From the IMG/VR virus record IMGVR_UViG_2713897161_000007: a DNA stretch of 26,780 nt; one strand, 5' to 3'. The first letter of the stretch is position 1. Each line of letters starts with the position of its first letter. Position numbers and translations under genes: made by a program. This document shows positions 3,619 through 22,350 of this stretch, one piece after another. The stretch comes from a virus (Duplodnaviria; Heunggongvirae; Uroviricota; Caudoviricetes). The notes under the pieces are model-generated. The model saw only the letters and a list, made by a program, of their open reading frames with translations, was not told where the DNA came from and did no database searches.

Positions 3619-3629
3619 AGGGTGTTGCG

Positions 3630-3982: not shown

Positions 3983-4068
3983 CCGCATAAATAAAACCCC
4001 AGCTTAAATAAAAAAATGTGAACACAATCTGCATTCGCAGAGGTATTCACACACACCAAGGAGGCGTA

Positions 4069-4487: not shown

Positions 4488-4595
4488 ACCTCAAGCCAGC
4501 AATAACTACTCGTAGAACGTCAATTCCTGTAACCGACCGCTTCTGAGTTTTTTGGCAGGAAGCCTTCGCACATCTGTAGTAAAGAGAATTGCAGC

Positions 4596-4985
4596 ATGAT
4601 TGACGCTCATGACTTCACAAGATGGGTGCGCACACAGGACACCCGTCTGGCTCCCGTTCTTCAGGGATTATTTGATCTCTACATCCGTGGTCGTGACAAC
4701 AGAGCACGCACCACAAAACCGGAGAATGCAGACACCCTTTATTTCACAGTAGACGACTGCTACCGCGTGGACTTCACACCACACGGGCTGGCGTTGCACT
4801 GCCTGACACCACACGGCGAATCACTGCTGGCGTATTACGACTCCCCGGCCTCCATATTTGCGGCAATGCTGGCGCATCGCACTGCTGGCGGGTGTGCCTC
4901 GCTGAGTGAATACTCCGCTGAATTTAACCGCCTTTCCGCCCTCTTCTCACAGGAGTGGCAGCGCGTGACGGGATACCAGCCATGA
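4596..4985 (+). CDS. Hypothetical protein immediately upstream of replication gene A
   Basis: 129-aa ORF; its stop overlaps the A start (ATGA at 4982-4985). Confidence 0.5.
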   Translation: MIDAHDFTRWVRTQDTRLAPVLQGLFDLYIRGRDNRARTTKPENADTLYFTVDDCYRVDFTPHGLALHCLTPHGESLLAYYDSPASIFAAMLAHRTAGGCASLSEYSAEFNRLSALFSQEWQRVTGYQP

Positions 4986-7822
4986 GTGCGTTTGCATGGA
5001 GCTGGAATGAACCACGGCCAGCCATTGATCCGGCCAGATTTACGGAGCGCAGGCAGGAAACTGAAACCGACCTGCAACGCGCCATCCGTTACTACCTTGA
5101 GGCAAACAAAAGGGCACAGGAAGAACAGGAAGCGAAGGAAGAAGCCTTTTTCGCACAATCCACCGTGGGTAAAAAACTCATGGCATCCCTTGAGGAAGCC
5201 GGACAGCGTGAAAAGCTGGCACAAAGCATCATCAGCAAGCGTCAGGCAACAGAACAAGACCCGGTGGCCCGTGCTTTTGCCACACTGAAGGTGCTTCCCG
5301 TTTATCTGCGTGAACCTCTGAGCCGCCACCTCTCTTTTCTGCGCAAGAAGCAGGAAGCCGATCGTCAGAAAGGCAAAAAGAGCTGGCAGGCTGAACGCTA
5401 CGCGCGCGGAACCCTGCGCAAAATATTCGAACGTCTGGACCGCACCGACAGCCGCTGGCTGACACCGGGCTATCGCTCCCTTGCCGGACGCGAACGCCTG
5501 GACGATTTGCTTTACCTGCCGCAGCTCAACAAACACCAGATACAGACGCTGGCCACCATGACGGCGGCGATGTTCAGTGGCACTTTTGAAAAACTCTGCG
5601 ATGGCTTTGGCGCGACCGATGGCGAGCTGACCATGGATGTAACGCTGAAGGCGTATCAGATGCTGGCCCGCATGGCGTTACACCTGCACGCTATGCCTCC
5701 ACATTATGACGCTCTGACAACAGACAAAGACCGGAGGAATGAACCGGACACGGAGCTGCTGCCGGGCGCAATCCTTCGCCTGACCTGTGCGGAATGGTGG
5801 AAACGCAAACTGTGGCTGTTACGTTGCGAGTGGAGAGAAGAACAACTCCGCGCCGCCTGTCTGGTTTCCAGAAAAACATCACCCTATCTGAGCCAGGACG
5901 CGTTAAGCGAGTTTCGCGCACAGCGCGAGAAAACACGCGATTTCCTGAAAAGTTTCATGCTGGAAAACGAAGACGGGTTCACGATTGATCTCGAGACAGT
6001 GTATTACGCGGGAGTAAGTAACCCGATTCACCGTAAGGCAGAAATGATGGCCACCATGAAGGGGCTGGAACTTCTGGCCGAAGCCCGTGGCGACAGAGCG
6101 GTGTTTCTGACTGTCACCTGCCCGTCAAAATACCACGCCACAACAGAGAACGGTCATCCGAATCCCAAATGGAACGGGGCCACCATGCGCGACTCCAGCG
6201 ATTACCTGGTTAACACGTTTTTTGCGGCGGTCCGCAAGAAACTGAACCGCGACGGCCTGCGCTGGTATGGCATCCGCACGGTGGAGCCTCACCATGACGG
6301 CACCGTGCACTGGCATATGATGGTCTTTGCTCATCCGGAAGAAATCGACACCATTGTGTCCCACACCCGCGATATTGCCATTCAGGAAGACCGCCACGAG
6401 CTGGGCAATGATATTACTCCGCGCTTTAAGGTGGAGTATGTCGACGGCTCAAAAGGCACGCCAACCAGCTACATCGCCACCTACATCGGAAAGAACCTGG
6501 ACAGCCGCGCCGTGGATGGCATCGACCCGAAAACGGGCAAGCCACGCGTTGACCACGAAACCGGAAAATCAATGGCCGAGAGCGTGGAACGCGCCATCGG
6601 CTGGGCACGCCTTCACCGGGTCCGCCAGTTCCAGTTCTTTGGCATCCCCTCCCGTCAGGTATGGCGTGAACTCCGCCGCCTTGCCAGCCAGATGGCACGC
6701 AACCCGGAAGGCCCACAACGGCTGAAGGATGATGCAATGGATGCGGTACTCGCTGCCGCTGATGCCGGATGTTTTGCCACCTACATTGAAAAACAGGGTG
6801 GCGTACTTGTTCCGCGCAAGGACTACCTGATTCGCACAGCCTACGACCTCGCAGATGAGCTGAACGATTACGGCGAACAGAGTGTACAGATTTACGGGAT
6901 CTGGTCGCCATTCATCGGGGAATCCTCCCGTGTGTGCACGCATCCGGATAACTGGAAGCTGGTAAGACGTAAACCGGAAGCGGAAGACAGCGCCCGCGAA
7001 AATGGTTTTGACCTTCAGGGCGGCCCTGCCGCCCCTTGGACTCGTGGCAATAACTGTCCCCGTGTACAGGAAACAGGCAACAACGGGACAGAACAGCCGG
7101 AAGAACGGCCAGCACCGTGGCCGCAGCTTCCTGACGGCGTTGAAGTAAATGAATGGATGCGCTCACTGAAACGGCACGAACGCCGGGCGCTGATGCGTTC
7201 GCTTCGTGACAAACAGGCAAAAAACAGCAGCGATGAAATGCAGAACTGGACACAGAGCCGCAAACAGCAGCGGCCTTTGCCTGATAACCACGAGTTACTC
7301 GCTAAAGAATGGCGGGAGTCTGCTGAATCTCTCGGCCTGCATATCGGTGAACAACAGATGCAGCACCTGTTACGGGGCGGCAGTCTGTACGTTGACGGCA
7401 GCATCATTGCACCGCAGGGATTTGAAATTGTACGCAAACCGGATACCCGCCCGGACAGCCGAATCACGCAGCTCTGGCAGCGTCTGAGCCGTAATCATGG
7501 CGTAAGCAGCACGGAGATCCGCCATAACCCGGTCGCCAGCTATCTGGCACAGCTGGGGGCATCAGACCCTGAAGCCGCCGCACGCCTGGCATCCACACTT
7601 CAGCAGGACCAGAACACCATGAAAACACCCGTTACCGTGCTTTCTGACATGCTGCGCGCCATCCGCGACGCAGAGCACGCACAGAGAATCAGTGAAACCA
7701 CTGAACGCGCCAGCCGCAAAGCAGACCTGCTGCGGGGTGGCCTGACCAGTGGAAACAAAAAACAGACAGAAACGGGACTCACGAATCCCGTAAATGAGCA
7801 AAAAACGCGCAGCGATATATGA
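4982..7822 (+). CDS. A: Rolling-circle replication initiator (HUH endonuclease), P2 gene A homologue
   Basis: HUH motif in TVHWHMMVF and paired catalytic tyrosines in YIATYIGK. Position matches P2 A. Start at 4982 or 4955. Confidence 0.85.
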   Translation: MSAFAWSWNEPRPAIDPARFTERRQETETDLQRAIRYYLEANKRAQEEQEAKEEAFFAQSTVGKKLMASLEEAGQREKLAQSIISKRQATEQDPVARAFATLKVLPVYLREPLSRHLSFLRKKQEADRQKGKKSWQAERYARGTLRKIFERLDRTDSRWLTPGYRSLAGRERLDDLLYLPQLNKHQIQTLATMTAAMFSGTFEKLCDGFGATDGELTMDVTLKAYQMLARMALHLHAMPPHYDALTTDKDRRNEPDTELLPGAILRLTCAEWWKRKLWLLRCEWREEQLRAACLVSRKTSPYLSQDALSEFRAQREKTRDFLKSFMLENEDGFTIDLETVYYAGVSNPIHRKAEMMATMKGLELLAEARGDRAVFLTVTCPSKYHATTENGHPNPKWNGATMRDSSDYLVNTFFAAVRKKLNRDGLRWYGIRTVEPHHDGTVHWHMMVFAHPEEIDTIVSHTRDIAIQEDRHELGNDITPRFKVEYVDGSKGTPTSYIATYIGKNLDSRAVDGIDPKTGKPRVDHETGKSMAESVERAIGWARLHRVRQFQFFGIPSRQVWRELRRLASQMARNPEGPQRLKDDAMDAVLAAADAGCFATYIEKQGGVLVPRKDYLIRTAYDLADELNDYGEQSVQIYGIWSPFIGESSRVCTHPDNWKLVRRKPEAEDSARENGFDLQGGPAAPWTRGNNCPRVQETGNNGTEQPEERPAPWPQLPDGVEVNEWMRSLKRHERRALMRSLRDKQAKNSSDEMQNWTQSRKQQRPLPDNHELLAKEWRESAESLGLHIGEQQMQHLLRGGSLYVDGSIIAPQGFEIVRKPDTRPDSRITQLWQRLSRNHGVSSTEIRHNPVASYLAQLGASDPEAAARLASTLQQDQNTMKTPVTVLSDMLRAIRDAEHAQRISETTERASRKADLLRGGLTSGNKKQTETGLTNPVNEQKTRSDI

Positions 7823-7870
7823 AGCGCGCACAAAACAGGCAAAAACGGGATTTCAGAATCCCGTAAACGA
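7759..7870. repeat. Two copies of a ~39-bp direct repeat, each with an internal palindrome ACGGGA-N7-ATCCCGT; candidate parC-like centromere/operator or origin element
   Basis: 7759-7797 and 7832-7870 are about 85% identical by eye. Palindromes at 7772-7791 and 7846-7865. Straddles the A stop and the parM upstream region. Confidence 0.5.
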
Positions 7871-7898
7871 TTAATTAATCAACATAAGGAAAACCGAC

Positions 7899-8858
7899 AT
7901 GAAAATTTACATCGACGACGGCTCCACCAACATCAAGCTGGCATGGACTGAGAACGGCGAACGCCGCAACGCCATCAGCCCGAACAGCTTCAAGTCGGAA
8001 TGGTCTGCGCCGTTCGGTGGCTCGCAGCCTGCTAACTACATGCTTGATGGCGTGCGCTATGGTTTTGATCCGGTCAGCGATCGCTTTGTCCAGACGACCG
8101 ACACGCAATACCAGTACAGCGATGTGAATGTCATTGCCATTCATCACGCGCTGGTCAAATCAGACATCACGCCACAGGAAGTGGATGTGGTTGTTACCCT
8201 GCCACTGAGCGAATATTTCGACACAAACGCACAGCCGGACATGGCCAACATCAACCGCAAAAAAGCGAACGTCATGCGCCCGGTGGAGTACCAGAACGGC
8301 GAAGCATTCACTATCCGTAACGTACGGGTTATGCCTGAATCCATTCCGGCTGGCTTTAAAGCACTGGCTGACATGAGTCCGTTTGAATCCCTGCTGATTG
8401 TGGATTTGGGCGGAACCACGCTGGATGTGGCAAAGGTTCAGGGGCAACTGGCAGGTATCAGCCAGGTGTTTTGCGATCCACACGTAGGCGTTTCTCTTAT
8501 GGCCGATGCCGTACTGTCGGTGATGGCCACTAACGGTATGCGCACCAGTCACCACATCGCCAATACCATTATCGAACATCGCCATAATGAAGCCTGGCTG
8601 CGCCAGCACATCCACAATGACGCGCATTACGCCAGCCTGATGGCGGTTATTCGTGAAAAGGAAGAAACACTGAAACAACGCGTGATCCGCGCGCTGGCGG
8701 TTTTTTCGGGTTACGGGCGGGTGATGGTTGTCGGTGGCGGGGCGGAGATTGTGGCACCCGCTATCCGCGAAGCCTGCGGAGTTAATGCGACTTTCATCGC
8801 GGACGGGGTGCCACAGTTTGCTCTGGTTAATGGGCTGTACGCAATGGACAAGGAGTAA
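7899..8858 (+). CDS. parM: ParM/StbA-family actin-like ATPase
   Basis: 319-aa ORF. N-terminus MKIYIDDGSTNIKLAW...ISPNSFKSEW and YSDVNVIAIHHAL match the plasmid R1 ParM signature. RBS AAGGA 8 nt upstream. Confidence 0.8.
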   Translation: MKIYIDDGSTNIKLAWTENGERRNAISPNSFKSEWSAPFGGSQPANYMLDGVRYGFDPVSDRFVQTTDTQYQYSDVNVIAIHHALVKSDITPQEVDVVVTLPLSEYFDTNAQPDMANINRKKANVMRPVEYQNGEAFTIRNVRVMPESIPAGFKALADMSPFESLLIVDLGGTTLDVAKVQGQLAGISQVFCDPHVGVSLMADAVLSVMATNGMRTSHHIANTIIEHRHNEAWLRQHIHNDAHYASLMAVIREKEETLKQRVIRALAVFSGYGRVMVVGGGAEIVAPAIREACGVNATFIADGVPQFALVNGLYAMDKE

Positions 8859-8862
8859 ACCA

Positions 8863-9174
8863 ATGACGACACCAACCAGACGGATAAGTTTCTATCTGAA
8901 GCCCGCCGCCGTCAAGAACGAAGGAGAAGCATGCGCCTGGCTGGACAGCCTTACACCAGAAGCCCGCAAAAGCGGCCAACGCGTGGCTTTTCTGGCCGGG
9001 CTGGCACTTCTGAAGACGAATCCGGCAGAGGCTTACCGACTGGCCGCATGGGCTGATGATGAGATGTTACCTGTGACACAAATCAGCTCAAAAAAGTTTG
9101 AAGCACAGTCTGCACCAGTGGCTAAGATAACCAGCCAGATGGCTGGGAATATCCGGGCGTTATTTCCTGAGTAA
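8863..9174 (+). CDS. parR: ParR-like ribbon-helix-helix centromere-binding protein
   Basis: 104-aa product from ATG 8863. RISFYLKPA and RVAFLAGLAL resemble R1 ParR (TIAFKLNP, RAALTAGLAL). Directly follows parM. Confidence 0.65.
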   Translation: MTTPTRRISFYLKPAAVKNEGEACAWLDSLTPEARKSGQRVAFLAGLALLKTNPAEAYRLAAWADDEMLPVTQISSKKFEAQSAPVAKITSQMAGNIRALFPE

Positions 9175-9244
9175 AAGCATCTGCGCGAAAAATGCTCACG
9201 TTTATAGAGACAGTATCATTCCATTTGGCACACTTACTTCAATA

Positions 9245-9331
9245 ATCGATCTGTTAAACAAATAGATTGTCTATTATCTATCGATTAAAACGATCAATTA
9301 TCTTGACAGTAATGTGCCTTTTTGTAAGATC
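9245..9331 (+). promoter_or_regulatory. Nested palindromes (AATCGAT...ATCGATT; TAGAT...ATCTA) directly upstream of a sigma70-like promoter (TTGACA-16-TAAGAT)
   Basis: TTGACA at 9303-9308, TAAGAT at 9325-9330; inverted repeats at 9245-9286 abut the -35. Confidence 0.35.
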
Positions 9332-9363
9332 GTTCGCATTGTGAGCGACAAGATAATTGCGCG

Positions 9364-9515
9364 GCATTGTCCATGCAAAACGCCCCAATAGCAGCAACTA
9401 TTGGGGCGTAAAACTCGGTCGGACTCACTTAACCTGATATGCGTGCCTTCCGAAGTAAATCAAAATGTGCGTCGTATATTTTATTGCTTACACGCACCTC
9501 TGTAAAGGCACGCAT
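9364..9515 (+). promoter_or_regulatory. Structured 5' leader or small RNA: hairpin CGCCCCAATAG/CTATTGGGGCG, then a long-range stem ATGCGTGCCTT/AAGGCACGCAT enclosing an inner hairpin and followed by a T-run
   Basis: Inverted repeats read directly: 9383-9410 and 9438-9510, then ATTTTT. Two short uORFs (11 and 29 codons) lie in the leader. Confidence 0.3.
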
Positions 9516-9538
9516 ATTTTTCCTATGAGGTAAATAAA

Positions 9539-9808
9539 GTGCGGGCTAAAACAGGTATTTGCAAGAACCCTCATCGTTATAATCCAACATTTCTGTCTCT
9601 CCCTGAATATCAAGGACAAGAAGGTCGGCACAAATGCGCTGCCTGTGCTTTTGAGCTAGGCATAAAAGATGCGCTTGAAGGACGCGCTATGGCTCAGAAT
9701 GATTTAGTTTTAGCTAACATTCCGTTTAGCCAGGCTGGAACTGTAAGGCACAGAGATGCCTATGAAGCATATGTTCGTGGTTGGCGATTAATAAACAGCA
9801 ACAATTGA
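9539..9808 (+). CDS. Hypothetical 89-aa protein with Cys/His cluster (possible zinc-binding), cargo in the A-cos slot
   Basis: GTG start with GAGG RBS 8 nt upstream. C-x3-H and H-x-C-x2-C spacing (ICKNPH...HKCAACAFE). Followed by an intrinsic terminator. Confidence 0.5.
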   Translation: MRAKTGICKNPHRYNPTFLSLPEYQGQEGRHKCAACAFELGIKDALEGRAMAQNDLVLANIPFSQAGTVRHRDAYEAYVRGWRLINSNN

Positions 9809-9816
9809 TACTTTTG

Positions 9817-9840
9817 AAGCGCCGATAAGGCGCTTTTTTT
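9817..9840 (+). terminator. Rho-independent terminator
   Basis: Stem AAGCGCC/GGCGCTT with loop GATA, then TTTTTTT. Confidence 0.6.
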
Positions 9841-10293
9841 GTTTGCACGATAGTGCACAAGTTTGCACAATTTTTTTGAACGACTTTTTGTACTTCCGGC
9901 CCGCGTGGTGGCTGGATCCGTCAAGGATCCGTACGTGCACAAAAAAACGCGTTTTTTCTGCGCGCAGGTGACGGGGGAACAGCCCGCGTTTCAGGGGGTA
10001 AATAGCATCCCCTGAACGATGTCGCAGCGACACAACAGAATGGCTGTATTTCTCACGCTGAGCGTGAAAAAGACGTGAGGGCTTTTGATTTGATGGGTGG
10101 CAGATAAGGCCGTCAAAATCGCACTGAGGCGGCGAGAACATGCAGTCAACGCGGTGGGATTGCGTAAGAGTCTGACCGCCGATGATGACAATAAGCAGAA
10201 AAGCGTCGTGAAATTATCTGATTGATACAGGAGCTGGAGAGTCGGGGCATAAATTTTTTATGCCCCGGCGAAGCAGCAGACAAGCGAAGCGCG

Positions 10294-11340
10294 TCAGGAT
10301 GTGGGCTGGGTATCTAGCAGTGCGTAAGGGTTAAAGCGGATCACCTCTTCGCCAAGCCAGTCATTGATGTGCTTCATGGCCTCCATGACGGGCATCAGCT
10401 CGTTAATTGCGTAAACCCGCGCGGCCTTCTCCACATCACCAAACGCACTTTTTTCGCCCGGCATCGCCCCCATCAGTTGCGGCGGAACGCGGTGCGCAGC
10501 CAGCACATCATCACGGGATGCCGCCTTAACATTCATGAACTCATCCTTTGCAGTGATCTGCTGGAACGGCAAAATTTGCACACCTTCTTTGCCCCCGTTG
10601 GGCGCATGGATGAGTACGTTTTTAAACGCACCACCACCACGCGCGCCCTGTAACGTTTCTTTCAGGGAGTCCATGCTTTCGCGGTTTACCTGCGCTGCAC
10701 CGATGTAGATGATGCACCCGGCGTGGGATCCGTTGTCGTAGTACAGTTTTCTGAACATGTCCGCCGAATGAGAAAGGCTGGCCGAGAGTAATGCGCCAAG
10801 ATATTCCGGCATGCCGTAGATTTCCTGGTTAATATCCGGATTCATCAGGTGGCACACTTTGCCAGGGCGAAACTGGAACGCGTCCTTGCCATCCTGCACA
10901 TACCACCATGATTCAAGATCGCTTCCGCGTCGCATGTATTTCGCCAGGGCGTGCCGTAATTTAAGCGGTTCGCCGAGCATATTGCTTCTAAGCTCAAGGA
11001 ATGCGTTACCGAACACAAACCAGTCCAGCGCCAGCGCCGAGAAATCCTGCCGGGAAAGCAGCGGGTGCGGGATGTAGCAACCGAGTAATACATTGCGCTT
11101 AAAGTAAAGCGCAGACTGATGCCAGGACGTTTGCCGGGCTGCTCTTGCCAGACCGTACCAGTCCACCGGGGTTTCATACCACCGTCCGTTATCAGCACAG
11201 TACATATTGTCCAGCAGGTCATGCCCGGTCAGGCGATAAGGACCATCAAATGTGAATGCACTGAGCGATGATTCTTTCCTGAGCGCATCAGCGAGATCAA
11301 TGCGTGAACTCATGCGCACTTTTTTATTTTTTCTGCTCAT
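10294..11340 (-). CDS. Q: Portal protein, P2 gpQ homologue
   Basis: 348-aa ORF immediately downstream of terminase with overlapping stop/start; size and position match P2 Q. Confidence 0.85.
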   Translation of the reverse strand: MSRKNKKVRMSSRIDLADALRKESSLSAFTFDGPYRLTGHDLLDNMYCADNGRWYETPVDWYGLARAARQTSWHQSALYFKRNVLLGCYIPHPLLSRQDFSALALDWFVFGNAFLELRSNMLGEPLKLRHALAKYMRRGSDLESWWYVQDGKDAFQFRPGKVCHLMNPDINQEIYGMPEYLGALLSASLSHSADMFRKLYYDNGSHAGCIIYIGAAQVNRESMDSLKETLQGARGGGAFKNVLIHAPNGGKEGVQILPFQQITAKDEFMNVKAASRDDVLAAHRVPPQLMGAMPGEKSAFGDVEKAARVYAINELMPVMEAMKHINDWLGEEVIRFNPYALLDTQPTS

Positions 11341-13091
11341 CAGAACTCCATAACCGTGAAACGCTCGTTTTCTCCTTCGCCGCCAATCGGTTCGTTAATG
11401 ACAGCAAGCATGGTTGCCCACGCAAGGTCGCCGTGGCTGATCCCCCTCGCGCGGTCCGTTTCGTAAGTGATAAAGCCGCCCGGTGTTTTCACCTTACGCA
11501 CGGCGTTAAAGGCCGCGACCAGCTCGCGTTCGGCGCGATCGTATTCCCACCGCCCGGCACGCATTATTTGCAGCATTTTCAGTACCAGCGACCGTTTTGA
11601 TGACAGCGTGAAGGTGTACGGAATAGCAGCAGGGAAAAACCGTTTCACTATCTGATAAACAGCCTCCCCGTTCCCGCCCGTCACATCAATGCCGATGTGT
11701 TCCACGTTGTAGCGATACGTGAACTCTTCAATGACTCTGGCCTGTTCTTCAAACTCCAGCCCCTGAACGCGTCGCGTCTCCACCGTTCGAAAACGGCCAC
11801 CAAGAACAGCCGGAGGAACCACCACGGACACAGCGCCGCTGTCGCCGTTGCCACTACTGCCGTTTGCGTCATACCCAATCCATACCGGACGATTCCCCAT
11901 CGGGCGGGGAGCAAAAGGTTTCCAGTCTTTCCAGTCGTCGTATCCGTCAACACCGCAGCCAATCAGGATATTCAGGTTAAATGCCGATTCCCCTTCGCGG
12001 ACAAACTCACACATATAGAGATTGAGGAACTCGTCTTCGGTGTTTTCATCACGAATTTCGTCGATATCGGTGTGTTTCCAGCCGTGATTGACCACATCTT
12101 CCAGCGTGACAATTTGCCGCCACGTCCGGTCAGGGCAGATAAGCCCGTTATGCAGAGTTTTCCAGTCCACAGAAAAACGCTGGCGTTTATGCGTGGCCTT
12201 TTTCTCGTTCCAGCGGTCGCCGTTCCAGTAGGCGTATGCCTCGTGCGTTTCGGTGGATGGCGTGGAGAAGTAGGTGCGCCGCAGTCCGCTGAGGGTTGCC
12301 ATAGCGCCAGCCACCTTGCGCAGTTCAGCAAAGCGACTGACCCAGAAAAATTCATCAAAATAAAAATTGCCCGTATAGGACTGTGCCGACGCAGCAGAAG
12401 TGCCGAGAAAATGCAGCTCTGCGCCGTTGGAGAGGATGATTTTATCGCCCCCTTTCAGCTCCACATCAACTTCAGCCGCGGCCTTCTGAATAATGCTTTT
12501 AAACTGGAACGCCTGACGACGCGACGCAGACAAAAAAATCTGGTTACGCTGGTAAGGTTGCGCCACATCGTCACGCAGCGCCATCAGCAGAGCTTCCTGT
12601 GCAAAATACCAGGTCGCCCCAATCTGTCGGGATTTCAGGATCATCCTGTTACGTATCCCGGCTTCCCTGCAAAGGGTCAGGGAGTCAAACCAGCCCCGCT
12701 GATGCCACTCCAGCCTGCTGATGATTTTTTCCCGCAGTGCGGCAATCTGTTCCGGCGTGAAATGATTTTTGAGTTTTTTCGCCCGGCCTTTCTTTCCTGT
12801 GACCGTCGCATCCGGCTGGCCATCATGCAGTTTTTTAAGCTGCCGGGTCAGCAGGTCTATTTCCTTAAAGTCACCGCCTGTTTTATTCTGTTTTTCAGTA
12901 AGCTGGATGAGGCGCGCATCGATGGACTGCGTGACACGCTGCACGGGTGGCGTTTCATCCCACTGGTCGCGTTTTTTCCACGCATAAATCGTGTTCGGGT
13001 TTATTCCCATCAGACGTGATATTTCTGCGGGCGGATAACCCTGCCAGTAAAGTTGCCGCGCACGCTGGCGCACAAAAGCGTCCTGAATCAT
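11340..13091 (-). CDS. P: Terminase large (ATPase) subunit, P2 gpP homologue
   Basis: 583-aa ORF, close to P2 gpP length. Divergent from O, as in P2. Confidence 0.9.
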   Translation of the reverse strand: MIQDAFVRQRARQLYWQGYPPAEISRLMGINPNTIYAWKKRDQWDETPPVQRVTQSIDARLIQLTEKQNKTGGDFKEIDLLTRQLKKLHDGQPDATVTGKKGRAKKLKNHFTPEQIAALREKIISRLEWHQRGWFDSLTLCREAGIRNRMILKSRQIGATWYFAQEALLMALRDDVAQPYQRNQIFLSASRRQAFQFKSIIQKAAAEVDVELKGGDKIILSNGAELHFLGTSAASAQSYTGNFYFDEFFWVSRFAELRKVAGAMATLSGLRRTYFSTPSTETHEAYAYWNGDRWNEKKATHKRQRFSVDWKTLHNGLICPDRTWRQIVTLEDVVNHGWKHTDIDEIRDENTEDEFLNLYMCEFVREGESAFNLNILIGCGVDGYDDWKDWKPFAPRPMGNRPVWIGYDANGSSGNGDSGAVSVVVPPAVLGGRFRTVETRRVQGLEFEEQARVIEEFTYRYNVEHIGIDVTGGNGEAVYQIVKRFFPAAIPYTFTLSSKRSLVLKMLQIMRAGRWEYDRAERELVAAFNAVRKVKTPGGFITYETDRARGISHGDLAWATMLAVINEPIGGEGENERFTVMEF

Positions 13092-13245
13092 TGCTCCCCC
13101 TGAGTAATTACAGGAAGATTACCCGCGCGCGAAACTGTTCTCCTTAACCCCCTGTTCTGGCCGTTTTCTTACAACAAAATCCCTTTGTATCAGCCTGTTA
13201 CGCTTTGCCATCATGACTGAAGAACCAGTCAGAGGGGCAAAAACT

Positions 13246-14082
13246 ATGGCTAATGAAAAAAAGACATCCCGCAAAAAGTTTCGCGTGGCTGTCTCCGGAT
13301 CAACTGTTGATGGCCGTGAAATCAGTCCGGTGCATCTGCGTGAAGCCGCCGAGAACTTCAACCCGGATGTTTACGCTGCCCGCGTGAACGTTGAGCACTA
13401 TCTCTCGCCATGCCCGTCAAGCGAATTTTCCGCAATGGGCGATGTCACCGCGCTGAGTACGGAAGATATTACGGAAGGCCCGCTGGCCGGACGTACTGCG
13501 CTGTATGCAGAAATCGAACCGACCGAGCGCATGAAGCAGCTTGTCGCTGACGGCAAGAAAATCTATTCCAGTATCGAACTGCACCCGCAGTTCTCCGTTA
13601 ACGGGCGTGCCTATCTGGTCGGGCTGGCGATGACCGACACCCCGGCAAGCCTGGGCACTGAGCGCCTGAAATTCACGGCACAGCAGCGTCAGGCGGTGAT
13701 GACGTTCAACAGTATCCAGGGTGAAGCACCGCTTATCTCCGAAGCCATCGAGTCTGAAATCATCGAAATGGCAGAACAACGCCAGGAAGAAGGCACCCAG
13801 TGGTTTAACCGCGTAATGGGGATTATTGGTCGTGGCCGCAAAGCGGATGACGCCAGTTTCTCCCGTATTCAGGAAGCGGTGGAAGGCGTTGCAACATCAC
13901 AGGCCGACATTATCGACCGTTTTAATGTGCTGGAAACCCGCCATCAGTAGGACCGCCAGAAAATCACGTCACTGACCACAGAGCTGACAGCACTGAAGGA
14001 AAAACTGCGCACGCAGGACGGCGATCCGCAGAACCGCTTCACCGCAACGGGCGCAGCCTCCGACCAGCTGGCTGACTTCTGA
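13246..14082 (+). pseudogene. O: Capsid scaffold/protease gene (P2 gpO homologue) interrupted by an in-frame TAG at 13948-13950; frame continues 43 codons to TGA at 14080-14082
   Basis: N-terminus MANEKKTSRKKFRVAVSGSTVDGREIS matches the gpO pattern. After ...ETRHQ-TAG the same frame reads DRQKITSLTTELTALKEKLRTQ...QLADF with no internal ATG. Summed length is close to P2 gpO. Confidence 0.7.
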
Positions 14083-14105
14083 TAAGACAAAGGAGCAAAT
14101 TTTTT

Positions 14106-14744
14106 ATGAATCTGGTGATGTCAGATATTACCCGCAACAAGCTGGGGTGCTATATGGCGCAGCAGGCGTCGCTTAACAATATCCCGGTATCTGCACTGGT
14201 ATCGCGATTTACCGTGGAACCCGCGGTGCAGCAGCGTTTTGAAAACGCCTCAAAGGAAAGTACCGAATTTACGAAAAGAATTAACGTGATCGGCGTGACC
14301 GACCAGAAAGGCGAAAAAATCCTCCTGGACACCACCGGGCCAATTGCGCGCACGAATAGCAGTTATGACGGCATCAAACGCCGTAAAACGGTTTATGACG
14401 TGGCATCAGGGGACTCGTTATTTATTTCTGAACTCGGTCCATTACCGGAAAATGTTACCTGGTTGTCGCCGTATGGAGAGTATCAGAAGTGGAACGGCAC
14501 ATCCTGGGTGAAAGATGCAGAAGCAGAAAAACTGTTTCGGATAAGGGAGGCGGAAGAAACAAAAAACAGCCTGATGCAGGTAGCCAGCGAGCATATTGCG
14601 CCACTTCAGGATGCCGTAGATTTGGATATTGCAACGGAGGAAGAGGCATCGTTACTGGCTGCATGGAAGACATACCGGGTATTGTTGAATCGTGTTAATA
14701 CAGCGGTAGCAGCGGATGTTGAGTGGCCAGTCGCCCCACAATAA
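14106..14744 (+). CDS. Chimeric ORF: N-terminal ~90 aa of major capsid protein (gpN-like) fused in frame to the C-terminal ~120 aa of a tail fibre assembly protein (Tfa/gpG-like)
   Basis: Residues ~30-90 ([10 protein letters not shown]...[17 protein letters not shown]) match the P2 gpN N-terminus as remembered. Residues 94-212 ([23 protein letters not shown]...[11 protein letters not shown]...EWPVAP) match lambda/P2 Tfa C-termini. Junction near 14370-14385. Confidence 0.7.
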
Positions 14745-14780
14745 AGAGAAAAAGCCATCGATTGAAATATAGATGGCTTT
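14745..14780. terminator. Hairpin between convergent genes; T-rich on the minus strand (terminator for the acetyltransferase gene)
   Basis: Stem AAGCCATC (14752-14759) / GATGGCTT (14772-14779); minus-strand reading is followed by TTTTTCTCTTT. Confidence 0.5.
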
Positions 14781-14787
14781 ATGTACT

Positions 14788-15393
14788 CTATTTATACAAT
14801 ACAACACCGCTCTTTTTAGTTATATATGTGCAGTTCGATGGTATATCTTTATTTATAAAAGACATTGCACCTATTTTTACATTATCCCCAATTTTACGTG
14901 ATAATCCAATGATGCAACAATTAGCTCCGATATCAACGTTACTACCAATTTTTACTCTTGAACCAGGCATGTCACCATCTATCTGTCCAATGGTAGTATT
15001 CTGTCGTAACACCAGATTTTCACCAGCATCAACAGCAAAATGAACAACAATTCCAGCATGATGGGGAATTGTTAACCCTTTTCCAATATTTGCGCCCAAT
15101 CCAATTTCACAACCAAATTTGTTAATTATTTTACTGTTTAACTTTTTGGCTGCTTTCTTATGTAATTTATTACCATTAATATACATTTCGTTAGCCAACC
15201 GCCACCAGAAAAGGAAATTCCGGTTACGCTGTTTTTTCTCTCTTAAAAGCCTCCAGATATCCATACGTTTCCGCCGAATTACTTCATATTTCCAGAAGTT
15301 TTTTAAATTAGTAGAGTCCCCAAATAAAACAAAGTGAATTGCCATTAAGTAAGACAGCACGATAATCTCCTTAATTATTATTTCAGACCACAC
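14788..15393 (-). CDS. Hexapeptide-repeat acetyltransferase, serine O-acetyltransferase (CysE/WcaB-like) family
   Basis: 201-aa ORF with left-handed beta-helix hexapeptide repeats (IGANIGKG, IGSNVDIGAN, IGDNVKIGAM) and a CysE-like segment before them. AT-rich. Start may be GTG at 15360 after AAGGAG. Confidence 0.8.
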   Translation of the reverse strand: MWSEIIIKEIIVLSYLMAIHFVLFGDSTNLKNFWKYEVIRRKRMDIWRLLREKKQRNRNFLFWWRLANEMYINGNKLHKKAAKKLNSKIINKFGCEIGLGANIGKGLTIPHHAGIVVHFAVDAGENLVLRQNTTIGQIDGDMPGSRVKIGSNVDIGANCCIIGLSRKIGDNVKIGAMSFINKDIPSNCTYITKKSGVVLYK

Positions 15394-15516
15394 ATATTAT
15401 AAGGTTAAGAGATTATAAAATCCTGTTGTTTGTTATTCAAAAACAATTTTCTGAGAAGGACATACAACAGCAAGTCGCCAGTCACCTTCATCAGGAAATT
15501 GGCGACATACGTTAAA

Positions 15517-16011
15517 TCAGAGCAGCCCCTTAACTGAGCTGGTCGCGCTATTAAGGGATGATGTCACCTTATCTTTGAAGCCGGACAACATATCGCTGAA
15601 CGATGAGGATTGCAGGCGCTCCCGCAAATCCTCATCACAGCGTTCAAGAGTCAGTGAAAATTCTATCTTTTTCGCCTTACCGTAGCGATCAAACTCGGAG
15701 CGGGTCGTATTCGTTTCGGTCAGGACATACATGCCGTAAATCTGCCCGACGCCATCAATCAGAGGCCAGGGCCGTCCTGTATACGCCTGCGTGGTCAGCA
15801 GAGACAGCGACACTTCGCCACCTGTAATTTCAGGATAAAGCACACCAGAAAGAACGATGCGATCATCACCTGCACCGATATACTGCCAGCTTGCTGAACG
15901 GTTAACGCGTTCATTTTTCACATGCCGCCAGCTTTTGTTTTGCTGTAACTGCTGATGCGGCAGCGTGCGCAGCTCAAAAACAAACATGCCATAGATCATC
16001 ATCATGGCCAT
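15517..16011 (-). CDS. U: Tail protein, P2 gpU homologue
   Basis: 164-aa ORF downstream of the tape measure gene; N-terminus MMMIYGMFVFELRTLPHQQLQ resembles gpU. Hairpin plus T-rich tract follows on the minus strand. Confidence 0.8.
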   Translation of the reverse strand: MAMMMIYGMFVFELRTLPHQQLQQNKSWRHVKNERVNRSASWQYIGAGDDRIVLSGVLYPEITGGEVSLSLLTTQAYTGRPWPLIDGVGQIYGMYVLTETNTTRSEFDRYGKAKKIEFSLTLERCDEDLRERLQSSSFSDMLSGFKDKVTSSLNSATSSVKGLL

Positions 16012-16017
16012 GACTCC

Positions 16018-18861
16018 TCAATCTTTATCGTAAAAACTGCCACGCCCGGCACGGGCGCGCCGTTCCATTTCTGCCCTGACCATTTCACCGACCAGTTTCG
16101 CCAGTTCGCGGGGATTCTGCGTAACAACGTTATGCAGATGAACATGAATTTCACCGCCAAATCTGGAGACAGCAGGCTCCCGATTACGGGAAGCTGCAGG
16201 AACTGATGCCACTGGCGATCGTATGGCCTCCGCCACCGGGCGGGAGCTGGCCGCAACAACAGGGACCAGCGCCGGAGGCAGCGGAGCCGGGACTACGGGT
16301 GTGATATTAATTGCGGGGGCAGGCTTACTGACCTGCGCAATCTTCCGCTCCTGCCACTCCCCACGAACAGCAAGTGCGCGGGGCAGGTTCTTAAAGACAA
16401 TATCGCCAGGGCCAATGCGTTTTTTCGTCTCATCAACCAGCTTACCTGTGTTATCAGCAATTTTGCTGAGTCTGCGTAGCGTCCCGGTATTGCTGTCTGT
16501 GAGCGGTTTGTTGTCTTTGGGTTTATCACCTCCGGTGCCATTGCCATTTTCCACAGGCTTCGGCGGATTGATTTTCGCCAGGTCCCCCTGAAGTAAGGCA
16601 ACCTTATCCTGAAGAATGGCCGCACGCTGTGCGTCTTCGATTTTCTTGCGCGCCCTTTCCGCTTCATCCGGAAGGACGCCAAGTTTTTCAAGTATCCACG
16701 CCAGCGTATCCAGTAGCATTTTTGCAGGTGTCAGAACAAGTTGTAACGCACCGCCAAGAACGTTACCGAATATCTCGCCAGCACTGGTACATTTATCCAG
16801 CGTTTCCTTGCTGGACTCCATCGGTGACAGCAGCGATTTAAACCAGTTAAACACCTGGCTGATCCCGCTTCCGATTGCGTCAAAAACAGGGCCAAACCGT
16901 TCAAAGGTTTCACGCAACGGGTTCAGCCTTTCCATAATCCCGCTGAACACCCCGGCAAAAAATGCCCTGATGGGATCCCAGTATTTCCAGATAAGGACGG
17001 CAGCTCCGGCAAGCGCAGCCACGATAAGACCAACCGGACTGAACAGCGCCCCGATAGCGCCTCCCAGTAAAGAAACGGAACCCGTCACCATTCCCCATAG
17101 TGCTGGCAGGACCCTGACAGCATTCATTGATCCGGTCAGGAGAGAAAAACCAAGACGCAGTTTTGCCAGCGGACCAGCAAGCACACCAATAGCCAGCGAC
17201 AACGAGCCAACCGTTGCAGTCATTGCCAGCAACGCACCGCCTGCTATCAGTAGCTGGCGCGTCAGTGCCGGATGGGCCTGCGCCAGCGCCGTCACCCTTG
17301 ATACCACCCGCGTGAGCCACTGCGTGACAGAACGCAGCGGACCGTCAATCAGATCTGCAATGCGGATGCGCAACCCTTCCCATGCACTGCCGAGTGATTT
17401 CAGATCGCCGTCAAGGTTGTTGGCCATAACCTTTGCTGTGCGTTCAGCCTCACCGCGCGCGCCTTCAAGTTCTTTTCTCAGTTTGGGTAAGGAACCGTCA
17501 CCCACTGCATCAACGAGCGCCATAAACGATGTGAAAGCCTCTTCTCCGGCAATGTCCTTAAAGAACGATACCCGGTCAACTTCCCCGTATTTGCGGGTGG
17601 CTTTATAAAGGTCGGCCAGCACATCCTCCATCGGGCGCATTTTACCCCCGGCATCCGAGACGGACACGCCCAGCTCTTTCAGAGCTTCTGCCGCCGCCTT
17701 TGGCGGTGATGCCAGACGAGCCAGGCTGGCACGCATTGCCGTCCCGGCATCACTCCCTCTGATGCCCATATTCGCCAGCACACCAGCCATCGCTGCGGCC
17801 TGCTCCAGCGATATTCCCAGCTTACCCGCCACCGGACCTGCATATTTCATGGTTTCGCCCAGTGCGCGAAGGTCAGTGTTGGTACGGGTAAACGCTGCGG
17901 TGAGTGTGTCACCGACCCGGTCCATCTGGTCAGCAGAAAGGCCGAACTGCGTCAGGATATTTGAGCCAATATCTGCCGTCTCGCCGAGATCCATACCGCC
18001 AGCCGTTGCCATGCTCAGCACTCCGGGAAGCGCAGCCTGAATGGCCTGCGGTGTGAAGCCTGCCATTGCAAGAAATGCCTGCCCACTGGCGGCATCGCCT
18101 GCGGTGAACTGCGTTTCAGAGCCAAGTTTTAACGCCTGCTCACGCAGCGCCTTAAACTGCGGGCTGTTCTGGTCGATTCGCGTCAGCGCCTGAACGCGGG
18201 ACATCTCTTTGCCGAACCCGATCGCGGGCTGCAAAAAACGCCCGGCAGCATAGCCGCCCGCCGCTGCCGCACCAATTGCCAGCGCACCACCTGTTTTCAG
18301 TTTTCCCGCGGTTTCCTGCGCGCGCGAATACCACTCACGCGCCCGCGTTACACGCGCAAGCGCCTGCCGTTCGCGTTCAAGCTGGTTGTTGTACTGTTCG
18401 GTGCGTCTGATGGCCTGCTGGATGGTGTTATCGCTGCCTGTCAGGGAAATGCCGTGGCGTTTCAGCTCTCCGCCAAGCTCCCGCATTTTCTGAATTTCCC
18501 GTGTGCGCGATTCATTCAGGCGTTCAAGCCGGGTGCTTAACTGCTGCATCAGCTTTTGTTGTTTTTCGCTGAGCACTGTACCCGTGCGTTGTAACTGATT
18601 AAGGGCGTTAAGCTGGCGTCGTGCTTTCACGATACCCGCATCCGCTTTACTGACAGCGTCGCGGGCGCGCTCAAATGAACGAGCCTGACGCTCGAGATTT
18701 TTAATCGCCCCCTGCGTTCGCTGGATGGAGTCACCAAACTGCCCCATCAGGCGGCGGGCGTTTTCGGCAGGCCGGGTCAGCCTGTCAACGGCGCTGAAAG
18801 CGACCCGGATATCAAGAGTCTTCATTGTCTGCATTCCCGCTGCGAAGTGCCGCCCGCTCAC
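16018..18861 (-). CDS. T: Tail tape measure protein, P2 gpT homologue
   Basis: 947-aa ORF, coiled-coil-rich N-half and hydrophobic Gly/Ala-rich central segments. Start is GTG at 18861 or ATG at 18834/18825. Confidence 0.9.
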   Translation of the reverse strand: MSGRHFAAGMQTMKTLDIRVAFSAVDRLTRPAENARRLMGQFGDSIQRTQGAIKNLERQARSFERARDAVSKADAGIVKARRQLNALNQLQRTGTVLSEKQQKLMQQLSTRLERLNESRTREIQKMRELGGELKRHGISLTGSDNTIQQAIRRTEQYNNQLERERQALARVTRAREWYSRAQETAGKLKTGGALAIGAAAAGGYAAGRFLQPAIGFGKEMSRVQALTRIDQNSPQFKALREQALKLGSETQFTAGDAASGQAFLAMAGFTPQAIQAALPGVLSMATAGGMDLGETADIGSNILTQFGLSADQMDRVGDTLTAAFTRTNTDLRALGETMKYAGPVAGKLGISLEQAAAMAGVLANMGIRGSDAGTAMRASLARLASPPKAAAEALKELGVSVSDAGGKMRPMEDVLADLYKATRKYGEVDRVSFFKDIAGEEAFTSFMALVDAVGDGSLPKLRKELEGARGEAERTAKVMANNLDGDLKSLGSAWEGLRIRIADLIDGPLRSVTQWLTRVVSRVTALAQAHPALTRQLLIAGGALLAMTATVGSLSLAIGVLAGPLAKLRLGFSLLTGSMNAVRVLPALWGMVTGSVSLLGGAIGALFSPVGLIVAALAGAAVLIWKYWDPIRAFFAGVFSGIMERLNPLRETFERFGPVFDAIGSGISQVFNWFKSLLSPMESSKETLDKCTSAGEIFGNVLGGALQLVLTPAKMLLDTLAWILEKLGVLPDEAERARKKIEDAQRAAILQDKVALLQGDLAKINPPKPVENGNGTGGDKPKDNKPLTDSNTGTLRRLSKIADNTGKLVDETKKRIGPGDIVFKNLPRALAVRGEWQERKIAQVSKPAPAINITPVVPAPLPPALVPVVAASSRPVAEAIRSPVASVPAASRNREPAVSRFGGEIHVHLHNVVTQNPRELAKLVGEMVRAEMERRARAGRGSFYDKD

Positions 18862-19341
18862 GCCAGCTAACCACTTCGCCGGGCGTCATCATGAAGATTT
18901 CGGCGGGCGACCAGTTAAAAATAACGGCAATATCTGCCACAAAGTCTTCTATGTGCTCAAAGCACACAACCGTGATCAGGCTTCCGTCGCCTGTTCGTTC
19001 TTCCCGCCAGAGTCCGCACCGCTCAAAAAATTTACGGCAACCACACATAACTGAATAAAGTCACGGGATGCCATTTTTTTGATCGTCACTTCATCCAGTC
19101 GCGGTGATGTCACGCGTGACAGCAGCGTAAACATGGATTCCGCTTTCAGATTCAGCACATCAGACAGCGACAAATCTCGCAGAGATCCAGCCTGCTCAAT
19201 AGCCCCGGTGATCTCCACATACGTGATTTTTTCGCCGCCTCGCTCAATTGGTTGGGTAAGTTTTACACCACGCTCACTGGTTTCTTTCACAGTGTCAGCA
19301 ACTACCGTGTTTTCGGTATCGATGTTTTTCGTCTCTTTCAT
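18812..19341 (-). CDS. E+E' fusion product made by programmed -1 frameshift; E' portion reads ...FFERCGLWREERTG... and ends at 18812, overlapping the T start
   Basis: The -1 frame is open from the slippery site to 18812 and closed just upstream (stop at 19061-19063). Same architecture as the P2 E/E' frameshift. Confidence 0.7.
18976..19341 (-). CDS. E: Tail assembly chaperone, P2 gpE homologue
   Basis: 121-aa ORF with AGGAG RBS; contains slippery heptamer T_TTT_TTG near its 3' end. Confidence 0.75.
   Translation of the reverse strand: MKETKNIDTENTVVADTVKETSERGVKLTQPIERGGEKITYVEITGAIEQAGSLRDLSLSDVLNLKAESMFTLLSRVTSPRLDEVTIKKMASRDFIQLCVVAVNFLSGADSGGKNEQATEA
19024..19030 (-). promoter_or_regulatory. 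Slippery heptamer T_TTT_TTG for the E/E' -1 frameshift
   Basis: Plus-strand CAAAAAA at 19024-19030; in the E frame the codons read AAT TTT TTG AGC (N F L S). Confidence 0.7.
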
Positions 19342-19395
19342 CAGGAAACTCCTTTCAGTCAGAGGCGACGCACTGCGCCGCCTGCATATTACTTA

Positions 19396-19908
19396 TCAGC
19401 CAAGCCCGAGCGCGGAACGGATGCGATCGGGCACAATGTCCTTGCCGTCCTTCCGGTAAATGAAGTTCAGCAGGTCAATCTCCCACAACGGGCGATCGTT
19501 AACACTCAGCTTGTAGTAGGTGTTTTTAATGGCGTAAGTGTGTGATGTGGCTTCGCCCTGTTTGGCTTCCCCCATATCAATTTCCGTCACACGTCCGCGC
19601 ATTTCGACTTCATACAGGTCGCTTTCTGCATCGGTGTAATATTCACCCGCAAAACGCAGCAGCGTGCCGTCAATCGTGCCGCCATACTTAAGGAACAGCT
19701 CACGAACTGCGCCCCCCATGACAAAGCTCGCATCAAGCGCGGAGTCGTCCAGACCGAGATCAATACTTACCGCACCCATCATGCCACCACCCCGGTAGCT
19801 GTCGGTTTTGCGCGTCAGCTTAGGCAGAGTGACGGACGTCACCTTACCCACTTCGTTTTCACCATCCACAAACAGCGTAAAAAAGCGAAGATGTTTTGGT
19901 ACAGCCAT
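19396..19908 (-). CDS. FII: Tail tube protein, P2 gpFII homologue
   Basis: 170-aa ORF immediately downstream of the sheath gene; length and position match gpFII. Confidence 0.9.
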   Translation of the reverse strand: MAVPKHLRFFTLFVDGENEVGKVTSVTLPKLTRKTDSYRGGGMMGAVSIDLGLDDSALDASFVMGGAVRELFLKYGGTIDGTLLRFAGEYYTDAESDLYEVEMRGRVTEIDMGEAKQGEATSHTYAIKNTYYKLSVNDRPLWEIDLLNFIYRKDGKDIVPDRIRSALGLG

Positions 19909-21092
19909 CAGGCACCTCCCAGCACCGCAAATGCGGGTTCAAAGTATTCATCAGTAAACGTCTGGTAAAGCTCCATGTCTTCCAGTGGCGGAACGGGCGT
20001 ATATTTGTAGCGAATACGCACACGCCCCTGACGTAAATCCGTGGTGCTGTTATCCACCACGTCATACCAGCACTCCGCGCCAATCAGTTTCCCGGCAGTA
20101 ACCAGCGAATCCAGTTTTGCCCTGATGGCACTGATAACATCCTTCACGTTCGCAGGCGTCAGTGGACTGTCGATGGTTTCAAACTGCGCTTCCGCAATTG
20201 AATCAGCCAGCACCTGTGCGGTTCGGGTATACACCTCAAAGATGTAGGCGTTCGTTTCCGGTGTGCGGTTGCCCCAGAAGCGGAACCCGTTGCGACGAAT
20301 AATGGTCGTGATTTCTTTGTTGTTGAGGCTGTTGGCATCACTGTCTTCGGCCTGCAACGACCAGAAAACATGCCTGGACATCCCCAGCACATTTTTAACA
20401 GGAACGTTGGACAGCGATTTGTGCCAGCCCTGCTCATGGTCAATGTACGCACGAAGGCCGCACGCATAGGCAGGCGCGGGGAACGTTTCGTTTTTGCCAC
20501 TTTTCGGGTTGTAGGCGATGAAGTCCGGCCATAAGAGCATCACCTCACGTTCGTTGAATTTCTGGCGGTAGGTAATTGCCTCAGCCATCGTGTTACAGTC
20601 ATGACATGAGGCATACACAAACGCGCGCAGTTTACCCGCAATCACGCACAGGGATTTTGTCACCGCCTCCGTGTCCAGCTCCGGCGCGGCCAGAATACGC
20701 GGACGGTATCCGATGCTTTCATCCTGCTCTGCAACAAGCAGCGCATACATCCCCGTATAGCTGCCGTCAGATTCAGAACCACCGATAACCAGTTGATCCT
20801 GCGTCTTACCGCCTTCTTCTTTGTGTTCAGCCACGCGAACGACGATCACTTTTGTGCTCACCTGGTCTGCAATAGCCTTAAGCGCACGATAAAGCGTCCC
20901 CGTAGTCCCGCATTTTCCCAGCACGTCATTGACGCGGGTCAGCAGTGTGGGCTTGTTCAGCGGGAACAGCTCCGCGTCCGCATCATCCGCCGTTGCCACG
21001 ATACCGATAACACTGGAATCAACATCATTAATCGCTGTTACCAGGTCGGTACTTTCCGTAACACGGGCACCATGAAAACGAGTTTCACTCAT
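19908..21092 (-). CDS. FI: Contractile tail sheath protein, P2 gpFI homologue
   Basis: 394-aa ORF. Motifs match gpFI: FPLNKP, YRQ.F..RE, WPDF, GWHK.LSNV, IRR.GFRFWGNRT, YTPVPPLE. Confidence 0.9.
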   Translation of the reverse strand: MSETRFHGARVTESTDLVTAINDVDSSVIGIVATADDADAELFPLNKPTLLTRVNDVLGKCGTTGTLYRALKAIADQVSTKVIVVRVAEHKEEGGKTQDQLVIGGSESDGSYTGMYALLVAEQDESIGYRPRILAAPELDTEAVTKSLCVIAGKLRAFVYASCHDCNTMAEAITYRQKFNEREVMLLWPDFIAYNPKSGKNETFPAPAYACGLRAYIDHEQGWHKSLSNVPVKNVLGMSRHVFWSLQAEDSDANSLNNKEITTIIRRNGFRFWGNRTPETNAYIFEVYTRTAQVLADSIAEAQFETIDSPLTPANVKDVISAIRAKLDSLVTAGKLIGAECWYDVVDNSTTDLRQGRVRIRYKYTPVPPLEDMELYQTFTDEYFEPAFAVLGGA

Positions 21093-21249
21093 AGCTTCAG
21101 CCCCTTGTATCCGTTAAATGATTCGGCAACAATCATCACCCACCACGCGCGTAATCTCACCCCTGCGCCGTTCTCCCGCCACGGCGACAACAAAAAGCAG
21201 TAACCCCCTATGCACGCACATGCGACCATGCCGCACAGGGAGGGAACAG

Positions 21250-22350
21250 ATGACCGATACCACCATGCAATTGCTCAGTCAGAGCACAGACCCCGTGAAA
21301 ATGCCGGATTTTGATATTCTCGCGGAGGGGGAAACACTGTCCGGCGTGGCAGAGCGCCTGATGAGCCTGTCACTGACCGACAACCGGGGATTTGAAGCGG
21401 ACCTGCTCACCATCACGCTGGATGATGCGGATGGTCAGTTGCAGCTACCGCCACGGGGCGCGCGCCTGACGGTTCTCATTGGCTGGAAAGGAGAACCGCT
21501 GACAGAAAAAGGCACTTACATTGTTGATGAAATCGCTCACGAAGGACCGCCGGACAGGCTGACTGTTTCAGCCAGAAGCGCAGATTTTCGGGATGAATTT
21601 AACGTTAAACGTGAGGTGTCCTGGCATGATGTGACCGTTGAGCGCGTGGTATCCGCCATCGCTCATCGGTACGGTCTGAAACCACAAATCAGCGAAATGC
21701 TGATGGATATTGAAATCGACCACGCCGACCAGACCGAAGAAAGCGACATGTCCTTCCTTACGCGCATGGCGGAAATGCTGGGCGCAATCACTACGGTAAA
21801 AAGCAGTAATCTGTTATTCATCATGCCAGGCGGTGGCGTGAACGCACAGGGCCAGCCGTTGCCATCGTTCGCCATCACGCGCAGCAGTGGCGATCGCCAT
21901 CAGTTCCGCATTGCTGACCGCGAAGCGTATACGGGGGTACGTGCTTACTGGCTTGATCTTAATTACGGGAAAAAGAAAAAAGTCAGCGTGAAACGCCGCA
22001 AACCGAAAAAGGAGAAAAGCAGCAGCCGTGAAGGTGACTATATGGAAGGTGCGGAAGGCAACGTGTTTGTGTTACGCAAGACTTATCAGAACGAGCAGGC
22101 AGCAAGACGTGCAGCGGCGGCAAAGTGGCAGCAGCTACAACGCGGAGCCGCATCATTCTCCATCACGCTGGCGCGTGGACGCGCAGAACTCTATCCCGAA
22201 ATGCATGGCACGGTGACAGGCTTCAAAAGTGACATCGATAATCAGGACTGGATTATTGCAAAAGCCGAGCACACCATTGATAACAGCGGCTTTACCACAC
22301 AGCTTGAGCTTGAAGCAAAAATCCCGGAATGGATAGCAGAAACAGAATGA
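21250..22350 (+). CDS. D: Tail protein, P2 gpD homologue
   Basis: ATG at 21250 preceded by GGGAGGGAA. Motifs LTLTDNRGFEAD, DRLT.SARSADFR, ESWHD, EGDYMEG, AKW..LQRG, NSGFTT.LELE match gpD. Confidence 0.85.
   Translation: MTDTTMQLLSQSTDPVKMPDFDILAEGETLSGVAERLMSLSLTDNRGFEADLLTITLDDADGQLQLPPRGARLTVLIGWKGEPLTEKGTYIVDEIAHEGPPDRLTVSARSADFRDEFNVKREVSWHDVTVERVVSAIAHRYGLKPQISEMLMDIEIDHADQTEESDMSFLTRMAEMLGAITTVKSSNLLFIMPGGGVNAQGQPLPSFAITRSSGDRHQFRIADREAYTGVRAYWLDLNYGKKKKVSVKRRKPKKEKSSSREGDYMEGAEGNVFVLRKTYQNEQAARRAAAAKWQQLQRGAASFSITLARGRAELYPEMHGTVTGFKSDIDNQDWIIAKAEHTIDNSGFTTQLELEAKIPEWIAETE

Follow-up and report, generated by a model that had tools for sequence, protein, structure and literature searches.

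The window, i.e., the whole stretch of 26,780 nucleotides that was analysed, is a defective P88-like prophage (Xuanwuvirus, P2 family) in the chromosome of E. coli, and it adjoins the leuZ-cysT-glyW tRNA genes and pgsA. The head genes are arranged in the P2-type order (Table 1): Q and P are located on the minus strand, O begins at position 13246 and N' at position 14106, both on the plus strand, and N is truncated by a deletion. A search for a P2-type Ogr box (TGT-N12-ACA) between P and O gave no match.

Table 1. Coordinates of the head-gene region, the amber codon and the deletion in the window
Feature	Positions	Strand	Remarks
Portal gene Q	10294-11340	-	Divergent from O-N
Large terminase gene P	11340-13091	-	With Q; P2-type Q-P / O-N synteny, cf. 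annotations of SCU-105 and P88
Ancestral gpO frame (capsid scaffold / maturation protease)	13246-14082	+	278 codons plus TGA, now interrupted
Truncated gpO ORF	13246-13950	+	234 codons plus TAG; protease half and first part of the C-terminal helix kept
Premature amber codon	13948-13950	+	C-to-T at 13948, CAG (Gln235) to TAG
Orphaned gpO 3' end	13951-14082	+	43 codons plus TGA; residues 236-278 of the scaffolding domain
Chimeric ORF N'::Tfa'	14106-14744	+	212 aa; N residues 1-93 in frame with tail-fibre-assembly residues ~73-192
Deletion junction	14383-14386		4-bp microhomology GTAA; positions 17387-28753 of the SCU-105 locus (L005) absent (11,367 bp)

Accessory genes are found at several places in the remnant. 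ParM/StbA-type segregation genes (7899-9174, plus strand) and a Hok/Gef toxin gene (24630-24770, plus strand), both identified from the annotations of SCU-105 and P88 and both intact, represent plasmid-like maintenance functions. A hexapeptide-repeat acetyltransferase gene is located on the minus strand (14788-15393) between the tail-fibre-assembly gene and gpU. Its RefSeq name in SCU-105 is serine O-acetyltransferase, its Pfam Hexapep matches are sub-threshold only, and its position, which in phage P88 is occupied by an inverted tail-fibre cassette and a DNA invertase, looks like the site of a cargo-gene swap. Another likely cargo gene (22750-23889, plus strand) is situated between gpD and ogr and encodes a 379-aa SEC-C motif protein ("YecA family protein" in SCU-105). 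The minus-strand section beside the integrase (1008-2455) codes for a DUF2511 protein, a 216-aa protein ("membrane protein" in SCU-105) for which Pfam gave nothing above threshold, and a repressor-like HTH protein. In P2-family phages, the immunity-region slot by the integrase is variable and often holds defence cargo, and we take 1008-2455 to be that slot.

A stretch of 124 bp (25710-25833) overlaps the tRNA-Leu(TAA) gene (25779-25865, minus strand) and is repeated with 99.2% identity just upstream of the SCU-105 integrase (L005 2771-2894, outside the window); this repeat, into which part of leuZ falls, probably represents the attR/attL duplication of the prophage. The host flank (25978-26649), which comprises the tRNA spacer and pgsA, differs from that of SCU-105 by four SNPs and a 1-bp indel in about 700 bp, compared with only 5 SNPs in the entire 25.7-kb prophage remnant. 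That the prophage is much closer to its SCU-105 counterpart than the flank is suggests a recent horizontal spread of the phage or a recombination of the flank.

The gpO frame is opened by the ATG at 13246, which is preceded by an AGGGG ribosome-binding site and is equivalent to the RefSeq start in relatives; for an upstream ATG at 13213, no ribosome-binding site was found. The position that the initial annotation gave for an in-frame TAG (13948-13950) is exact, and so is its description of the continuing frame, i.e., 43 sense codons (13951-14079) without a methionine up to a TGA (14080-14082), directly 3' of which a TAA is present. By simple arithmetic, an open run of 43 codons has a chance of ~(61/64)^43 = 0.13 in random sequence and is only weakly unusual, and the case therefore rests on homology. 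The truncated product matches Pfam PF05929 (Phage_GPO) with 269.8 bits (E=3.6e-80; gathering cut-off, 33.6 bits), and an intact relative reaches 303.9 bits (E=1.6e-90). The exact 234-aa protein is recorded at NCBI as EJP4580990.1, which is on 14 contigs. The peptide encoded downstream of the stop had been called coiled-coil-like, which is a fair description of residues 236-257 given the spacing of the hydrophobic residues I240, L243, L247, L250, and L254 (3-4-3-4, heptad type).

In all annotated relatives that were inspected, the gpO gene is 837 nt long and agrees exactly in extent with window positions 13246-14082. The window frame runs colinear to the genes annotated as "GPO family capsid scaffolding protein" in E. 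coli SCU-105, FORC_028, and phage P88. The comparison with SCU-105, the nearest complete genome, bears out the proposed single-base nonsense mutation from CAG to TAG, because T versus C at 13948 is the sole difference over 837 nt; the stretch behind the stop (13951-14082) is identical in nucleotides to the intact gene. CAG is also present at codon 235 in FORC_028 and in P88, which differs from the window at 12 of the 837 nucleotides. With a 1.1-kb query around the gene, nucleotide identity to P88 and the Xuanwuvirus prophages was 98.5-99.9%. At the protein level, the P88/Xuanwuvirus gpO (WP_001262655.1, in SCU-105 and strain 4/4) and the window copy are identical in amino acids outside codon 235, where the former reads CAG and continues to 278 aa and the latter has TAG. 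Alignment to intact relatives thus revealed a sense codon at 235 and a frame that runs on to the same TGA, and none of them ends gpO at the place of the amber.

The gpO region is common. It is 97-99.9% identical to prophages in ~1,070 of 5,426 (~20%) complete E. coli genomes and to records of P88 and other Xuanwuvirus (Peduoviridae). A 61-mer bearing the TAG had no exact match in the 5,426 complete RefSeq E. coli genomes, 842 of which hold the region with a best match of 98.4% (one mismatch), and none in 50,697 phage records, 11 of which hold the region. Likewise, a TAG-bearing 36-mer had no match in IMG/VR, the GTDB species representatives, or the JGI metagenomes, and its CAG counterpart matched 69 IMG/VR contigs. 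As all intact relatives checked (842 complete E. coli genomes, 11 phage records, and 69 IMG/VR contigs) read CAG and TAG is absent among them, CAG is the ancestral and TAG the derived state.

The consequences for the protein can be judged from P2 gpO, with which the P88-type protein aligns over its full length (BLASTP, E=2e-47), the domain map thus being carried over at 37% identity. In P2, residues 1-141 of gpO constitute the protease and residues 195-284 an internal scaffolding domain that is "absolutely required" for procapsid assembly (PMC7552001). Q235 aligns with residue 235 of P2 gpO, the last kept residue corresponds to P2 residue 234, and the orphaned 3' end corresponds to P2 residues ~236-280. 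The PF05929 profile is covered from position 2 to 222 of 268 by the truncated product and from 2 to 267 by the intact one, so that positions 223-268 are gone, and a product that stops at 234 has only an incomplete equivalent of the scaffolding domain (P2 195-284). With residues 235-278, the protein has lost the distal half of its C-terminal scaffolding domain, which is alpha-helical and oligomerises, and also the very C-terminal tail. Chang et al. are said to have shown in 2009 that P2 gpO has a helical segment at ~197-257, that its extreme C-terminus is needed for correct assembly, and that His48 and Ser107 are the catalytic residues. According to BLASTP, the latter two positions are occupied by the identical residues H51 and S109 in the window gpO.

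Judged from this domain map, gpO(1-234) would have kept its protease half and would be unable to scaffold procapsid assembly. The initial annotation had expected the C-terminal capsid-binding region to be removed unless the codon is suppressed; the distal scaffolding domain is indeed lost, but the condition is moot, since the capsid gene N and ~11.4 kb of essential late genes had already been deleted. Because its scaffolding domain is incomplete, the window gpO is a truncated allele or pseudogene of the GPO family and not a functional member. It shares with P2 gpO the family PF05929, the position in the divergent Q-P / O-N arrangement, and the two-part layout, with the protease at the N-terminus and the helical scaffolding domain at the C-terminus; it differs from it by the cut at residue 234 of 278, with the equivalent of P2 ~235-284 lost, and by the additional deletion of the partner capsid gene.

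This deletion, which the initial annotation had overlooked, is located ~430 bp downstream of the amber codon. The window matches SCU-105 at ~100% identity over 25 kb in two BLAST pieces, i.e., window positions 1-14386 correspond to L005 3001-17386 and window positions 14383-26780 to L005 28754-41152. According to the SCU-105 annotation, the deletion removed most of N, the genes M, L, and X, the holin, endolysin, and spanin-like genes, a DUF6645 gene, the genes for tail completion, baseplate, and tail fibre, and tfa in its 5' part. The chimeric protein encoded across the junction, the parts of which were assigned by comparing its translation with N and Tfa of SCU-105, matches PF05125 on residues 15-93 and PF02413 on residues 92-212. 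Compared with close intact relatives, genes essential for virion production have been lost, to which the nonsense codon in gpO adds, and the element cannot produce virions whether or not gpO is intact. The junction is absent from the complete RefSeq E. coli genomes but present in L006, L008, L009, L011-L013, and L015-L020, and the fusion protein is indexed in 70 blocks of draft and metagenome assemblies, compared with 31 for the truncated gpO.

The order of the two events is documented by assemblies that have the deletion junction together with CAG (L017 [GCA_020373465.1], L018 [GCA_020282305.1], and L020). Over 11-20 kb, these assemblies are just 1-2 nt apart from the window, and they share, where covered, its private SNPs relative to SCU-105 (4978, 19125, and 23398); the deletion therefore came first and the amber later in a sub-lineage. 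The wider distribution of the fusion protein (70 blocks) than of the truncated gpO (31 blocks) is in line with this order. Deletion and amber aside, the prophage has four base differences from SCU-105 (4978, 19125, 23398, and 24537). The first is a Leu/Gln exchange in a small ORF, 19125 is synonymous, and 23398 is a Ser/Cys exchange, which falls at residue 217 of the 379-aa SEC-C protein. So few differences indicate that both the deletion and the amber are recent.

We consider it very likely that the locus is a defective P88-like prophage in which the deletion was followed by a neutral amber at Q235, without suppression or recoding. The 11,367-bp deletion between 4-bp microhomologies killed the phage, and a later spontaneous C-to-T transition at 13948 in one sub-lineage of the deletion clone ended translation at residue 234, with the N-terminal serine-protease half kept and residues 235-278 lost. 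The amber was then most likely inherited clonally as a neutral, pseudogenising change in a dead prophage. As the capsid protein was already gone, it had no further effect on phage production, from which we infer its neutrality.

A sequencing or assembly error might be suspected, because gpO is only one base apart from the nearest complete genome and none of the 5,426 complete E. coli genomes in RefSeq has the TAG, as would be the case if the true base at 13948 were C and gpO intact. However, the index of the ENA/Logan/NCBI assembly collection lists exact copies of the 234-aa product in 31 blocks, a count that may include contig-end fragments of the kind described below for L014, and the TAG was verified in the DNA of L006-L013, L015, and L019, i.e., in ENA metagenomes, Logan SRA assemblies, and the NCBI assembly GCA_958308305.1. 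L008, L009, and L011-L013 match the window at 100% identity over 5.8-12.3 kb. Since the same TAG, haplotype, and deletion junction recur in many samples that were sequenced and assembled independently, including ENA gut metagenomes, the sequencing error that the initial annotation wished to see checked is excluded, and an intact gpO misread at one base is extremely improbable. There is virtually no chance that the TAG is a programmed feature, be it a conserved site of recoding or readthrough or the end of a short isoform of gpO that is made regularly. The 43 downstream codons that are still open in frame would fit such a site, but they are open because the mutation is recent, the stretch being identical to that of SCU-105. 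A recoding site would be expected to have a stop conserved in functional relatives, and sense CAG is found in every intact one (the 842 genomes, the 11 phage records, the 69 IMG/VR contigs, P88, and SCU-105). A suppressor tRNA, which had also been suggested for checking, is not encoded in the window, as its three tRNAs, Leu(TAA), Cys(GCA), and Gly(GCC), belong to the leuZ-cysT-glyW cluster and none has a CTA anticodon; with the capsid gene N deleted, suppression would rescue nothing and no suppressor is needed. In E. coli, a G after UAG makes for comparatively efficient termination. Gene O ambers of P2 belong to the classical tools of phage genetics, and one might think of a laboratory mutant of the "Oam" type of a P2-family phage kept in a suppressor strain. 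Against this origin, the chance of which is negligible, stand the P88-like nature of the element (37% protein identity to P2 gpO), its state as a deleted remnant in a chromosome, and the occurrence of the allele in human-gut metagenome assemblies and many isolates.

The amber was found a second time, in a different P88-like prophage. In the contig L007 (Logan SRR17179356_288, position 10703), codon 235 of gpO has likewise gone from CAG to TAG, and a comparison with the intact prophage of strain 4/4 of E. coli (L090) gave 2 differences in 12,868 nt, one of which is this C-to-T. Compared with the window, L007 has nine other nucleotide differences inside gpO and another set of accessory genes upstream; downstream, the genes N, M, L, and X and those for holin and endolysin are all of full length. 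Its TAG is either of independent origin or the result of a conversion tract of <97 bp, a limit set by the flanking differences 13896 and 13993, which makes gene conversion from an L007-like donor unlikely. A mutational hotspot at 13948 was not apparent, since neither a Dcm (CCWGG) site nor a quasi-palindrome was detected in the region tested, and deamination at a Dcm site and quasi-palindrome-templated mutation were accordingly rejected as causes of the recurrence.

Such a recurrence is not predicted by a purely neutral account with a single origin, and selection has to be considered, i.e., that Q235* is favoured because disabled capsid assembly of an inducible prophage protects the host or because the fragment is dominant-negative against superinfecting P2-family phages. 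The appearance of the same C-to-T in a second prophage with N, M, L, and the lysis genes intact, at a site with no Dcm or quasi-palindrome motif to explain a hotspot, speaks for such a force. However, the allele is rare, as the truncated protein is on 14 contigs and the otherwise identical intact protein on at least 1,000. Furthermore, L007 is a single contig that may contain an error itself, and protection of the host from induction was not the force in the lineage of the window, where the phage had died before the amber arose. The look-up was made by exact protein sequence and could return only truncations at codon 235, and hence sampled no recurrence at other codons. Selection for the truncation is, on this evidence, very unlikely. 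Still less probable is the specific version in which the recurrence reflects selection for a gpO fragment with the protease/gpN-binding half and without oligomerisation and tail, acting as a dominant-negative decoy; if true, the decoy would prevent superinfecting P2-family phages, or the resident prophage on induction, from assembling capsids and would represent an anti-phage function encoded by a remnant. A stop codon can arise in gpO by 79 single-base routes, 19 of which are transitions, and because the gene has been sequenced at least 1,000 times and the prophage region is present in ~20% of the complete E. coli genomes, a second chance change at one of these 19 is unremarkable. The recurrence is best explained by chance and ascertainment.

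The contig L014 (ENA ERZ28599379 scaffold_10721) has an L007-like background and ends at position 2192, i.e., at the first base (C) of codon 235. It was rejected as a further TAG case, and its partial product mimics the 234-aa truncation. The break at this very codon is probably a coincidence brought up by the exact-sequence look-up; alternatively, the contig may have been broken at a C/T polymorphism within the sample.

The history of the window prophage is a case of ordinary prophage decay, in which gpO behaves like any other nonsense pseudogene and no new mechanism is involved. Like prophage pseudogenisation in general and the classical gene O ambers of P2, it combines deletion with point mutation and has a nonsense codon in an essential head gene; unlike the P2 ambers, the window allele is natural, is clonally inherited in wild E. 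coli, and arose in an already defective element. For annotation, gpO should be treated as a pseudogene or truncated allele and the element as a defective P88-like prophage that is unable to form particles. The biological weight of the amber is small, the prophage having been dead before it occurred. The locus provides a datable example of stepwise decay, with a large microhomology deletion followed by a point nonsense mutation, and since both intermediate haplotypes are still circulating, they could mark the lineage of this E. coli clone. The wider interest lies in the second, independent nonsense mutation in an otherwise intact prophage, which, if non-random, would suggest selection for scaffold truncation.
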